Of a stretch of 44,066 nt of DNA, positions 19,988-42,407 are shown piece after piece (within the stretch, counting starts at the first letter, position 1; each line of letters starts with the position of its first letter). The notes under the pieces are model-generated. The model made no database searches, was not told the DNA's origin, and was given only the letters and a program-made list of their open reading frames with translations. The translations under genes were made by a program, and so were the position numbers. This stretch comes from a phage, in assembly GCA_029093145.1 (NCBI GenBank), contig GCA_029093145.1_4347.1. One strand, given 5' to 3'.

Positions 19988-20022
19988 CAAAAAAAAAAAT
20001 AAGGCCCGAAAGGGCCTTATTT
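19988..20022. terminator. bidirectional terminator (A10 / hairpin / T-run)
   Basis: AAAAAAAAAAT-AAGGCCC-GAAA-GGGCCTT-ATTTAT. Confidence 0.7.
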
Positions 20023-20835
20023 ATGCGGAACTTTAGGCTTCACTCCGTCCCTACAAAGGGCCAAAATCTCTGGAATTATCTTAGGGTCTGAGGTTAGCAT
20101 CCACTCCGTGGATCCGTCGAAGCTGCCATAGCCCCACTCATTCGACGCTATTTTGTAAGTGTTATGGAAATACACTTCTAGCATTCGTATTTTTGCGCCG
20201 TTATCGTCGCGATGAATGCCAAGCACTTCGAAACCAAAGGGGGTAGCGTTACGCAGGTGACGTATCCGCTGTTTAGGCCTGTTTGATATCCCTATCTTCA
20301 CGAATCGGCCGCATTCACTAAGTAACGCATAGAGGAACCCAGTTTTATTAGGGTCGTACCCGCTAGAGGCACATCCAGGACATCCTTGATTCTGATGAAT
20401 GATATCTGCTATTCGCTGGCTAAACTCACCATGGATATCGCAAAGCCGCACCGCTTTGCTATACTGATTCTTATACCCTCCTTCGAAGCGCAAGAACTTC
20501 CACTTATCACTCACGGCGTAAATCTGCGAGATGCGTTCCTCCTCTGAGTATGAAGGTCTTCCCGCGCAACTAGGACACCCATGTTCCTTACTAATTGCGT
20601 TAGCTATCAAAGTGTCGAACTCCCCGTGTTCGGGACAGAGCCTACGTACCTTAGAATAGGCGTTTCGATAGCCGTTAGGAAATCCTACAAAACTGTATTG
20701 CGGGGCTACCTTAGCTAGTTCCTCTACTACATTGCTCTCAGGTTTTCGCTGTTTGCTTGATGAAGATTCTTTTCCACACCTAGGGCACCCAATACCTTTT
20801 TTTAATACTAGCGGCCGTTGCCGAGAAAGCCCCAT
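20017..20835 (-). CDS. T5orf172 (GIY-YIG-like) domain protein with tandem zinc-ribbon repeats; homing-endonuclease-like
   Basis: Two repeats Y(R/K)N(A/Q)YSK-(V/A)(R/V)(R/L)C-x2-HGEF ... HGCPxC; C-terminal GFLYALLSECGRFVKIGISNRPKQRIRHL resembles T5orf172; antisense between tail genes. Confidence 0.6.
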   Translation of the reverse strand: MGLSRQRPLVLKKGIGCPRCGKESSSSKQRKPESNVVEELAKVAPQYSFVGFPNGYRNAYSKVRRLCPEHGEFDTLIANAISKEHGCPSCAGRPSYSEEERISQIYAVSDKWKFLRFEGGYKNQYSKAVRLCDIHGEFSQRIADIIHQNQGCPGCASSGYDPNKTGFLYALLSECGRFVKIGISNRPKQRIRHLRNATPFGFEVLGIHRDDNGAKIRMLEVYFHNTYKIASNEWGYGSFDGSTEWMLTSDPKIIPEILALCRDGVKPKVPHK

Positions 20836-39635: not shown

Positions 39636-39664
39636 AGTATACATTGTGAATAATGGGAAATCAA
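39636..39664 (-). promoter_or_regulatory. sigma70-like promoter TTGATT-N17-TATACT
   Basis: Minus strand TTGATTTCCCATTATTCACAATGTATACT upstream of HTH gene. Confidence 0.4.
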
Positions 39665-40039
39665 ACATAATCGCACCTATTGACATTATGAAAATCTTCG
39701 TTTAAGGTGCTTTTATATCTTAGTTACTTTGATTCTTGTTCACCTTGTAATACCCGCTTGAAACGCAGCGGCGCACCAGCGCCAGCGAAGTGTTAAGCGG
39801 CAGATTACTGAACATATGAATTATCGTAACTTTCCTTCCTAAGTATCTCAGGTTGCCCTGGGCAAGCTCTATTCTCATCGACGGCATATCTCTTAAGTAT
39901 CTGATAATTAAAAGTTTCTATAGTTGCCGTGAGCAAGGTAGAGAGTACTTCACTCCGCTGGGGTGGGCTAACGCCCACCCACTGCGTTGCGTACTCTTTT
40001 AAGAAACGAAAGAATCACAACGGCAACGTAACTATTCTC

Positions 40040-40102: not shown

Positions 40103-40321
40103 ATGAACAAAGCGACCGCAAGCGTAGTTTCCGCAATCAAACAAGTTTACGGCATCGATATTTCAGAGCGCGTAATTATCGGGAACAAACGCAACTTCTT
40201 TACGTTCGGCACCGACGGTATGGATGAAAATGATTTTGTTAACGTACAACGTTTCGCTAACGGTAAAGGACTTCGTAACGAGCCAGCGGGTTACAAGAAA
40301 TTTGCTATCTACTTTAAATAA
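40103..40321 (+). CDS. hypothetical protein (72 aa)
   Basis: SD AAGGAA; downstream of class B promoter. Confidence 0.5.
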   Translation: MNKATASVVSAIKQVYGIDISERVIIGNKRNFFTFGTDGMDENDFVNVQRFANGKGLRNEPAGYKKFAIYFK

Positions 40322-40741: not shown

Positions 40742-40927
40742 ATGGGCGAGTGGATTAAGTGTAGTGAGCGGATGCCGGAGCCTTATGAATACGTTCTTGT
40801 AACTGATTGTTTTGTTGGCTGTGAGGTTATGCGTGTTAATTCAGATGGCTACTGGGGGCCTGCAAAGAGTTTATATCACGGTGATATAACGCACTGGATG
40901 CCGTTACCTGAGCCGCCGGAGGTGTGA
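40742..40927 (+). CDS. DUF551-like phage protein
   Basis: C-terminal HWMPLPEPPEV motif recalled as typical of this family. Confidence 0.4.
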   Translation: MGEWIKCSERMPEPYEYVLVTDCFVGCEVMRVNSDGYWGPAKSLYHGDITHWMPLPEPPEV

Positions 40928-41051: not shown

Positions 41052-41228
41052 ATGGAAACGTTCACAGAGAAACTTATGTGGTGCGTTGCAAAGCGAGACG
41101 CTGCGGCCAGAAGCTACCGTAAATGTGCCAACTGCGGCAGCGAGCAGGTACAGCTAATCTCGTACCTGGGCGGCACGGTTACACATAAGTGTCGAAAGTG
41201 CCATCACGTACATTCACAACACCAATAA
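41052..41228 (+). CDS. small zinc-ribbon protein (58 aa)
   Basis: SD AGGAG; CANCG ... CRKCH four-cysteine pattern (hand-translated; track shows a different frame 40954-41157). Confidence 0.4.
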   Translation: METFTEKLMWCVAKRDAAARSYRKCANCGSEQVQLISYLGGTVTHKCRKCHHVHSQHQ

Positions 41229-41295: not shown

Positions 41296-41421
41296 ATGAA
41301 AGATTATAGTGAAGTAACTTTAGGCGAGTTGCAGGACGAGTACGAAGATATGCTCTACCCGTTCATCTGCGACGGAGATTACAACGGCGTCTATAACGGA
41401 GTGAGCGAAGAATATGAATAG
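41296..41421 (+). CDS. hypothetical small acidic protein (41 aa)
   Basis: SD GAGAGGAGAG; hand-translated. Confidence 0.35.
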   Translation: MKDYSEVTLGELQDEYEDMLYPFICDGDYNGVYNGVSEEYE

Positions 41422-41923
41422 CAAAAACGAAGTATTTGAGTACCTGATTAACCAACTACGGCAGCAGGTGAGTAACAACCCATATAAGCAACAGTGCGAA
41501 GACTTGGCGCATGAGGTGCAGTCACTCAAGAATCAGTTACGTGATGCGTCAGCACTGGTGGCGGAGTTACATGAAACAATAAAACTAATGAACGAGGACT
41601 TTAACCGTGCAACCGGGCGAGGTGGCTCACTGCCGAAAGGGGAGAGCTACGTAGTAGGTGAACATGGGCCCGAGCAATCCGGTTGCCGTAAGGAAGATAC
41701 TCAGGAATGCGAGCACTCTTGGATTATTATGCCTGGGTTGTTTCTCAGCGAAGGCAATACGAACAACGTTCCTGGTAGTGAGCTTTGCTCTAAATGTGGT
41801 AAACGTGAGTGGGACGACAAGGAATATAAACCGAAAAACGATACACAGGAGTGCGAGCATGAATGGGAATATTATTACCCCGACGGTAGGCGTTGTACCA
41901 AATGCGGGGTGATAAACTTATGA
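41414..41923 (+). CDS. hypothetical protein with repeated Cys/His motifs
   Basis: Repeats DTQECEH(S/E)W and C(S/T)KCG; N-terminal coiled-coil-like region. Confidence 0.5.
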   Translation: MNSKNEVFEYLINQLRQQVSNNPYKQQCEDLAHEVQSLKNQLRDASALVAELHETIKLMNEDFNRATGRGGSLPKGESYVVGEHGPEQSGCRKEDTQECEHSWIIMPGLFLSEGNTNNVPGSELCSKCGKREWDDKEYKPKNDTQECEHEWEYYYPDGRRCTKCGVINL

Positions 41924-42123
41924 CCAGCATCTTATTTATCTGGGTACTGTCCGCAGGCCAGATGCACCTCGCGGCATCGGAAACGTTTTATTCTATGGAG
42001 GCGTGCCAGTCCGCGGCACGCGCAGCAGAGAACGCGCACTTCCTGTTTCAGGGTGACAAGCCCAACGATTCGGAGGTACGCGCTATCTGCTCACCTAAGC
42101 GACTTGGTAAACAGGAGAAGTGA
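41920..42123 (+). CDS. small putative secreted protein
   Basis: ATGA overlap; N-terminal hydrophobic signal-like segment MTSILFIWVLSAGQMHLAAS. Confidence 0.45.
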   Translation: MTSILFIWVLSAGQMHLAASETFYSMEACQSAARAAENAHFLFQGDKPNDSEVRAICSPKRLGKQEK

Positions 42124-42125
42124 TT

Positions 42126-42407
42126 ATGGTACAGAGATACGATTTAAAAGAAGACTGGGTTACGGGGCGTATTGACTTAGAGAAAGACGCAGACGGTGAC
42201 TGGGTTGATTACGAAGACTACGCGGAACTTGAGCGTAAGTTCAATGAACTCAGGACATGGCGTACGCAGATACTCAATGACGCTTTCGACTTTTTATCGC
42301 AGGCAGAAAAAGCGGAAGCCGAGTTGCAGAAATACAAGGACCAGTTCCCGGATTACGTAGAGTGCGCGAACTGCGGGTCAATTACACATGTGGAAGGGGT
42401 GGAGTGA
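42126..42407 (+). CDS. hypothetical protein, paralog A
   Basis: SD AGGAG; shares MV(Q/H)RY start and WV-x-YEDYAEL-x-RK motif with next gene. Confidence 0.5.
   Translation: MVQRYDLKEDWVTGRIDLEKDADGDWVDYEDYAELERKFNELRTWRTQILNDAFDFLSQAEKAEAELQKYKDQFPDYVECANCGSITHVEGVE

Follow-up and report, generated by a model that had tools for sequence, protein, structure and literature searches.

How should a small phage gene be understood when one Cys/His peptide occurs twice within its product? The gene in question is the open reading frame (ORF) at positions 41414-41923 on the plus strand of a 44,066-nucleotide stretch of phage DNA, hereafter the window (NCBI GenBank assembly GCA_029093145.1, contig GCA_029093145.1_4347.1). 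It encodes a protein of 169 amino acids (aa) from an ATG that is fixed as the start codon by an in-frame stop three codons upstream, and the N-terminus common to the homologues agrees with this assigned start. Our analysis indicates that the repeats are most likely two one-zinc, zinc-ribbon-like modules with an unusual C-x-H first half-site, carried on a coiled coil. Beyond what the initial annotation of this DNA had noticed, the modules form a variable cassette array across the relatives of the phage. We hold this structural description with high confidence. That the protein acts as a multivalent adaptor or inhibitor of host factors, in host takeover or counter-defence, is by comparison a speculative best guess that we offer with low confidence.

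The repeated peptide and its Cys/His modules

The initial annotation had described two copies of DTQECEH(S/E)W, each followed by C(S/T)KCG, and both are present as described. The first copy, DTQECEHSW, occupies residues 95-103 and precedes CSKCG at residues 125-129, while the second, DTQECEHEW, occupies residues 143-151 and precedes CTKCG at residues 161-165, which places the two C.H...C..C units at 41708-41797 and 41852-41905. Shuffling did not reproduce this arrangement: the best self-match of nine residues has 8/9 identities against a maximum of 6 in 2000 composition-preserving shuffles, and two C.H...C..C modules arose in 0/20000 shuffles of the C-terminal 85 aa. A pattern scan found the C.H...C..C pattern in no other ORF of the window. 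The DNA beneath the repeated peptide is a direct repeat, with copy 1 (GATACTCAGGAATGCGAGCA, 41696..41715) encoding DTQECEH and copy 2 (GATACACAGGAGTGCGAGCA, 41840..41859) lying 144 nucleotides (nt) downstream with 18/20 identical positions, both on the plus strand. Three codons differ within the shared DTQECEH (ACT/ACA, GAA/GAG and CAC/CAT). Because all three differences are synonymous, the comparison of the two copies indicates that the peptide is kept by selection and not by very recent duplication.

Each repeat joins a C-x-H to the next C-x-x-C and so offers four candidate metal ligands per module. Module 1, of the long type 'A', spans residues 99-133 (41708..41812, plus strand) and reads C99-x-H101-x-W103 ... 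C125-x-x-C128-G129 ... W133, with a loop of 17 conserved residues, PGLFLSEGNTNNVPGSE. A linker of conserved acidic and basic character, DDKEYKPKNDTQE (residues 134-146, 41813..41851, plus strand), leads to module 2, of the short type 'B', which spans residues 147-169 (41852..41920, plus strand) and reads C147-x-H149-x-W151 ... C161-x-x-C164-G165. Our initial module alignments were selected by the Cys/His pattern itself, and ligand conservation was retested with anchors that exclude the ligands. When the long module was anchored on GLF, the 85 distinct segments kept the first Cys in 84/85, the His in 84/85, the Trp in 85/85 and each Cys of the second pair in 85/85. When the module after the linker was anchored on the preceding RE[W]..KPK, the Cys was found in 77/80 distinct segments, the His in 76/80, the Trp in 75/80 and the downstream C..C in 77/80. 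Between these ligand positions, the module sequences fall into about 20 unrelated types.

These observations bear on whether the modules bind metal. The ligands are kept across module types, 81% of the array cysteines lie in C.H or C..C motifs (the remainder being mostly the junction Cys described below), and the sequence of the protein contains no signal peptide or membrane segment, which points to a cytoplasmic location. For these reasons, each module probably binds one zinc through Cys-His-Cys-Cys ligation, and we regard this as strongly suggested by the alignments. Since relatives with a single module exist, each C-x-H is expected to pair with the C-x-x-C that follows it, in a sequential and not a cross-braced arrangement. 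The AlphaFold models of the full-length protein and of an isolated 34-aa module agree with such a pairing. In both, the strand that starts from the conserved Trp is predicted to pair with the strand that ends at the first Cys of C-x-x-C, so that both half-sites would lie where a single hairpin has its base. In the full-length model, DSSP assigns these strands to residues 103-105/123-125 and 151-154/158-161. Across the two models, the modules reach predicted local distance difference test (pLDDT) values of only 46-80. The module-only model has a mean pLDDT of 70 and a hairpin at 16-19/23-26, corresponding to protein residues 151-154/158-161.

The modules resemble zinc-ribbon and rubredoxin-like knuckles such as Zn_Ribbon_1 (PF13240) and DZR (PF12773), which are likewise of about 20-35 residues and have ligand pairs at two hairpin ends, as is predicted for the modules, and they share with them the canonical second pair, C-x-x-C-G, and the occurrence in tandem copies. 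They differ from these knuckles in having C-x-H and an invariant Trp in place of the first C-x-x-C, and in carrying a family-specific leader (KPKNDTQE or QSGCRKEDTQE). The Pfam models reach only 10-14 bits against cut-offs of 25-27. The suggestion in the initial annotation that the repeats are two zinc knuckles is partly supported, by inference from ligand conservation and the modelled hairpins, but it finds no Pfam ribbon model above threshold and no significant fold match.

Several structural points count against our interpretation of the protein. The first half-site is C-x-H and not the canonical C-x-x-C knuckle, the full-length AlphaFold model is confident for the helix only, with the modules at the pLDDT values given above, and the Pfam zinc-ribbon models score below threshold on the protein (Zn_Ribbon_1, 13.9 bits against a cut-off of 25; DZR, 10.3 bits against 27.3). 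Isolated modules matched no Pfam family, and fold searches returned nothing significant, with the best Foldseek neighbours, themselves non-significant, being mostly zinc-ribbon chains (eS27, RPA70-C, Pol I A12.2 and ZifS). The non-canonical half-site, the low model confidence and the lack of a significant fold match could be taken to mean that the Cys/His pattern binds no metal at all, and reflects disulfides, conservation for another reason or a nearly neutral accretion of functionless small domains. We consider this highly improbable. About 20 module types that are otherwise unrelated retain the four ligand positions, the Trp and the Gly, and the same concentration of cysteines in motifs argues against it. 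In addition, the lack of a signal peptide or membrane segment would place the protein in the reducing cytoplasm, the non-synonymous-to-synonymous polymorphism ratio (pN/pS) is about 0.35, and the second half-site is canonical.

The stalk, hinge and junction

Upstream of the modules, residues 1-67 (41414..41614, plus strand) comprise an N-terminal head (NKNEVFEYLI.QLRQQV) followed by a heptad coiled coil, as judged from AlphaFold helices and conservation. A coiled-coil-like N-terminus had been proposed in the initial annotation, and the models agree, placing helices at residues 3-20 and 25-67 with pLDDT values of 76-89. The hydrophobic 4-3-4-3 (a/d) spacing read from the sequence is unbroken from L31 to F63, and for this reason residues 3-67 very likely form a coiled-coil stalk. 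Both the head and the coiled coil are conserved in family alignments, and the Pfam and PDB matches of residues 1-67 are to coiled coils only. Residues 1-67 are most likely an oligomerisation stalk, which would form a dimer or a trimer.

One match to this helix may be more specific than the others. Residues 29-57 (41498..41584, plus strand) resemble residues 21-49 of the coiled-coil helix of T7 Gp5.9, with 14/31 identical positions (phmmer against the PDB, E 0.08), and phrog_9014 ('Gp5.9-like inhibitor') is matched at E 0.003. An hhalign comparison with Gp5.9 gives a probability of 93% and a score of 35.8, whereas 200 register-preserving shuffles score 13.5 +/- 3.2 and at most 25.3. Because the score lies above those of all 200 heptad-register shuffles, the similarity appears to exceed generic coiled-coil resemblance, and we regard this weak match as a lead open to testing that does not classify the protein. 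T7 Gp5.9 forms a parallel coiled-coil dimer and acts as a DNA mimic (PMC9836394), and a second study reports that it also inhibits MukBEF (PMC7617805). By analogy, the stalk could be a parallel coiled coil that occupies the DNA site of RecBCD, or of a MukBEF-like host complex, and so protects the linear genome, with the zinc modules adding contacts.

The likeness to Gp5.9 (PDB 8B1R) includes a helix of the parallel-coiled-coil type with 45-48% identity over about 30 residues (SLKNQL...VAEL), and both are acidic, small accessory proteins of enterobacterial phages. However, Gp5.9 has 52 aa, an isoelectric point (pI) of 4.0 and no zinc modules, whereas the window protein has 169 aa and a pI of 5.1, and the match is borderline once the number of families scanned is allowed for. 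Pfam PF25708, which is detected on true homologues of Gp5.9, has no match at E <= 10. The acidic RecBCD contacts of Gp5.9 within the aligned stretch are D21/E24, E36, D38/E39 and E45 (PMC9836394, Table 1), but the window protein has acidic counterparts of D21 and E36 only (E29 and D44). The alignment of distant Gp5.9 proteins is limited to residues 4-26, a segment without an equivalent in the window protein, and the resembling helix is not conserved among them. Finally, the latter half of the stretch that matches (ALVAELHETI) is itself, within the family, a cassette that can be exchanged. Taken together, these points make a DNA-mimic function of the Gp5.9 kind quite unlikely.

The coiled coil is itself a site of variation. 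Relatives P0001, P0033, L004, L011, L037 and others carry cassettes at the equivalent of window position ~41470, one of them a 49-aa insert (NKKDVTSF...DSLRQQV) and another beginning LPVADVMGEIKRWSIDRS, with copies of the peptide LRQQV bordering them. Relatives also differ in the second half of the stalk, for which there are at least three alternatives.

Between the stalk and the modules lie two short segments of differing character. The first, residues 68-85 (41615..41668, plus strand), is a Gly-rich hinge, TGRGGSLPKGESYVVGEHG, which is modelled with low confidence and is variable or replaced in relatives. The second, residues 86-98 (41669..41707, plus strand), is a junction motif, PEQSGCRKEDTQE, with an invariant Cys91, and no other peptide of the family is conserved as widely. 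Within the junction peptide of this protein, PEQSGCRKEDTQEC, residues E87, G90, C91 and K93 are invariant in family alignments, and the junction is retained even in P0130/L043, a syntenic relative with an entirely different N-terminal domain. A role of the junction as a recombination signal at the DNA level was considered and rejected, as its synonymous sites are more variable (codon heterozygosity 0.34) than those of the N-terminal segments (0.13-0.19). Since the junction is conserved as a peptide and not at synonymous sites, recombination at the repeats looks like a by-product and not the work of a dedicated signal.

Cassette variation in a family of narrow range

The architecture of the array was compared across 121 proteins, comprising the 120 best homologues and the window protein. 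These contain 1-4 modules each, for 284 modules in total, of which 132 are distinct, and these fall into the ~20 sequence types noted above and 36 architectures. The commonest architecture is that of the window itself, a long type A followed by a short type B. Relatives in IMG/VR and GenBank add further cassettes, including a ~55-aa Trp-rich beta module, a C-x-C...H-C...C-x-x-C module and coiled-coil inserts. The mechanism of module loss can be read directly from one relative, P0077 (locus L006), which matches the window with 100% identity along the 3' two-thirds of the gene but lacks exactly 144 nt between the direct repeats. The synonymous variants are those of copy 1 in its left repeat, the counterpart of copy 1 at the left edge of the deletion, and those of copy 2 on the right side. 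The modules thus behave as cassettes, and L006 shows the loss of a module by repeat-mediated deletion.

The Trp-rich cassette (W..W.GG.CPV....V.V.FR.G....W.W....I..YRV) replaces zinc modules or sits between them. It is carried by L001 (4001-4687, Bas75_0065), L002, L019, L026, L035 and P0038, and it matches phrog_9174, 26870 and 16943, all of unassigned function, and no Pfam family.

Other relatives have lost or fused larger parts of the gene. The product of the gene at 42126-42407 (plus strand), two genes downstream in the window, ends in CANCGSITHVEGVE, and the array protein of the IMG/VR relative L038 (2501-3115) ends in CDNCGSVTHVEGVE; a deletion has apparently fused the tail of the downstream gene to the array, as judged by sequence comparison. 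In the 74-aa P0132, a homologue of the 41-aa ORF that lies immediately upstream in the window (41296-41421) is joined to the final zinc module at ...SEEY|KPKNDTQ..., and this deletion of nearly the whole gene suggests either dispensability or an assembly variant. Because frameshifted, truncated and fused variants occur among relatives, the gene appears to be accessory and dispensable. A tblastn search found the protein in 243 phage records, compared with 328 records that match the surrounding 1.5 kb of DNA.

The family to which the protein belongs is PHROG 6094, of unassigned function, which is matched at E 1e-50 (172 bits), with residues 1-137 aligned to positions 1-113 of the 142 in the profile and a second stretch in addition. 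The match is full-length; the 142-position profile holds one module, so that the window protein matches it in two stretches, and the family has no described function or architecture. Searches of Pfam, NCBIfam and PADLOC gave no family match, only sub-threshold coiled-coil or generic zinc-ribbon noise, and a PDB sequence search with the family profile returned coiled-coil proteins only. In a large protein collection, 1323 homologous clusters were found. A profile of the C-terminal 85 residues matched 19 clusters at E <= 1e-3 among 1.84 billion representatives; 18/19 carry the family N-terminus and one is a syntenic variant, so that this search detected no module beyond the family and that variant. 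All IMG/VR loci (34/34) lie on contigs of <= 45 kb; the majority measure 41-45 kb, and the others are shorter fragments. Across 185,579 bacterial and archaeal genomes there are two matches only, both on short contigs of taxa unrelated to the phage hosts. These are L049 (Taishania pollutisoli scaffold22) and L050 (a metagenome-assembled genome of Bacillota), and they are most likely phage contamination of the assemblies. By these searches, the family is almost confined to this group of phages, a narrow range that is typical of fast-evolving accessory genes.

Existing names for the homologues do not alter this picture. 'TolA-binding protein', 'cell division protein' and 'lactocepin' in GenBank are coiled-coil artefacts or names of neighbouring features: TolA_bind_tri matches at E 0.14 with 12.7 bits against a cut-off of 30.1, and the EzrA/FtsL-type matches are coiled-coil noise. 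An Rz-type i-spanin was also rejected, given the hydrophilic N-terminus MNSKNEVFEYLINQLRQQVSNN, the lack of a membrane segment and a match to phrog_6197 at only E 0.012, on the coiled coil. Literature searches on the family, the small genes of Guernseyvirinae, transcriptomes and zinc-ribbon counter-defence proteins brought up nothing about this gene, and for essentiality, the phage genome-reduction study found concerned a Skatevirus and not a relative.

Genomic setting and candidate functions

The source phage is a Guernseyvirinae siphophage, Kagunavirus/Jerseyvirus-like. The region of the window around the gene matches Kagunavirus and Jerseyvirus phages (Guernseyvirinae) of Escherichia and Salmonella, and its layout fits that group, with a P4-type helicase-primase and an HTH_17 regulator on the minus strand and, on the plus strand, a small-gene block followed by two holins and then lysozyme. 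The gene lies in the small-gene block, outside the head and tail gene blocks, and its neighbours are small genes without assigned function. As had been stated in the initial annotation, which called the block late, it precedes the lysis genes: on the same strand, the holin genes follow about 1 kb downstream and the endolysin comes after them. The block starts beside a divergent regulatory region with one promoter-like site at 39644-39671, but the promoter scan found fewer sites than expected by chance and supports neither 'early' nor 'late' expression for this gene.

The gene is part of a tightly packed operon, since its start overlaps the stop of the upstream ORF and its stop overlaps the next ATG. 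The upstream ORF (41296-41421, plus strand) encodes an acidic protein of 41 aa and overlaps the start of the gene by 8 nt, and a purine-rich, Shine-Dalgarno-like stretch read from the sequence, GGAGTGAG (41398..41405, plus strand), lies 8 nt before the ATG. At the other end, the coding sequence (41414..41923, plus strand; PHROG 6094) shares the ATGA at 41920-41923 with the next gene. That gene, at 41920-42123 (plus strand), is translationally coupled to the array gene through this overlap, and its 67-aa product (phrog_3766, function unassigned) is hydrophobic at the N-terminus and contains two Cys; the homologue of this gene still adjoins the array gene in the divergent relative L043.

Other genes of the window deserve mention in their own right. 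Two genes upstream, 41052-41228 (plus strand) encodes a 58-aa protein with a classical C-x-x-C...C-x-x-C zinc ribbon (CANCG...CRKC), which matches phrog_1474 (function unassigned) and, weakly, the PaaD zinc ribbon. The small-gene block opens with a DUF551 protein (E 1e-15) and a 72-aa protein (40742-40927 and 40103-40321, both plus strand), the match of the latter being to phrog_7673 (E 4e-26), which has the label 'internal head protein'. Within the tail-gene block, a 271-aa ORF at 20017-20835 (minus strand) contains two tandem C-x2-H-G-x-F...G-C-P-x-C fingers (20371-20442 and 20566-20637) and matches CapR/DUF723 and T5orf172/MUG113, which suggests a homing-endonuclease-like mobile gene.

What the array protein does must be judged from its composition, its variation and its setting. 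It has a pI of 5.1 and a net charge of -9, the family has a median pI of 5.3, and the arrays carry -4.6 charges per 100 aa. This acidity argues against a general nucleic-acid binder and favours protein binding. We propose that the gene product would be a cytoplasmic, non-structural accessory protein of Guernseyvirinae phages in three parts. The conserved head and heptad coiled coil would form a dimer or trimer, followed by the conserved junction peptide PEQSGCRKEDTQEC and then by an array of small modules predicted to fold independently, two in this phage, one long and one short. In each, Cys-x-His at the start of one strand and Cys-x-x-Cys-Gly after its partner strand would hold one zinc, and recombination between the repeats in the junction and linker sequences would remove or exchange cassettes. 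The stalk would supply oligomerisation and perhaps bind a constant partner, while the variable zinc modules may be heads that bind host proteins, in host takeover or counter-defence. The protein-binding accessory interpretation follows from the combination of a constant stalk, a variable and apparently dispensable array, restriction to one phage group and the small-gene setting, and a modular zinc-array protein acting as a multivalent protein-binding adaptor or inhibitor is, as a whole, the explanation that we tentatively favour.

Beyond the structural points raised earlier, some observations do not sit easily with this explanation. Within a module type, pN/pS is about 0.3-0.35, as estimated from few sequences, which fits selection on the protein but shows no diversifying selection, and small domains under weak selection, in an accessory region that recombines, would also be expected to show such a variety of cassettes. 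A few module types are basic (G +5, H +4 and also D +2), which leaves room for contact with nucleic acids, and the databases and searchable literature contain no experiment, annotated homologue or paper bearing on function.

The basic module types are also what might be expected of a nucleic-acid-binding regulator, in which the zinc modules bind DNA or RNA, the coiled coil dimerises and the protein controls the downstream lysis or morphogenesis genes in the manner of P2 Ogr/P4 Delta or Mu Com. Zinc ribbons often bind nucleic acids, the holin and endolysin genes follow on the same strand about 1 kb downstream of the gene, and tandem metal modules joined by conserved linkers are reminiscent of finger arrays that bind DNA. 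Nevertheless, the acidity of the protein and of the arrays, as given above, argues against such a role, and the free change in module number and type between close relatives is hard to fit to a fixed cis target. In addition, truncated and fused variants suggest dispensability, and no Pfam Ogr_Delta, DksA/TraR or DNA-binding family is matched at E <= 10, the Ogr_Delta and DksA/TraR models having been compared with the window protein and four multi-module relatives. We consider a regulator of this kind unlikely.

Two known systems help to frame this comparison. P2 Ogr and P4 Delta are late-gene activators, and Delta is a covalent tandem of two Ogr-like zinc-finger units. They resemble the array protein as small phage zinc-finger proteins, with a tandem metal module duplicated in the Delta polypeptide. 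However, Ogr has C4 ligands with a different spacing, there is no coiled coil and no Pfam sequence match, and the protein described here is acidic and variable in module content. Eukaryotic tandem C2H2 arrays have a conserved linker and an N-terminal domain with an oligomerisation or effector role, and they evolve as modules are gained, lost and shuffled. The array protein shares with them small metal-stabilised modules, a conserved linker and module turnover, an analogy that implies no homology. The fold and ligand pattern are different, and whereas those arrays are basic and bind DNA, the array here is acidic.

A virion-associated or assembly role, in which a decoration, scaffold-like or ejected protein displays its modules on the particle or is packed within it, must be weighed against the setting of the gene. 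Weak matches of the coiled coil to phrog_473 ('virion structural protein', E 0.13) and Phage_scaffold (E 0.0045-0.014) are consistent with this role, as is the 'internal head protein' match (phrog_7673) of the first gene of the block, and variable numbers of small domains have a precedent in decoration proteins. Yet the scaffold and structural matches, which stem from coiled-coil composition, fall far below threshold, the head and tail blocks do not include the gene, natural truncations and deletions occur, and zinc-thiolate sites are unusual on extracellular surfaces. Together, these points make a virion role very improbable.

Returning to the protein-binding adaptor or inhibitor, a stronger form of the proposal would see the array as a natural repertoire of recombining binding heads, each minimal and stabilised by zinc, on an oligomeric stalk that stays constant. 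Different module types would disarm different host factors or defence proteins, encounters with new hosts would lead phages to reshuffle the modules at the conserved junctions, and the Gp5.9-like stalk might itself be a DNA-mimic inhibitor. We regard this extension as speculative and rather unlikely; if true, it would represent a so far undescribed kind of modular counter-defence protein. Conversely, if the protein is dispensable and without a phenotype, the finding is an ordinary one.

The array protein is a candidate host-takeover or counter-defence factor in Guernseyvirinae, phages that are widely used in Salmonella and E. coli biocontrol and whose small genes are almost all unannotated. 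If the modules are independent zinc-held binding heads, the family would illustrate, in compact natural form, how domains are shuffled in a phage accessory gene, on a scale of about 20 module types and at least 36 arrangements, with a documented repeat-mediated deletion. Moreover, the C-x-H-x-W...C-x-x-C-G module lies outside current Pfam models, and its description would improve the annotation of >1000 database proteins.

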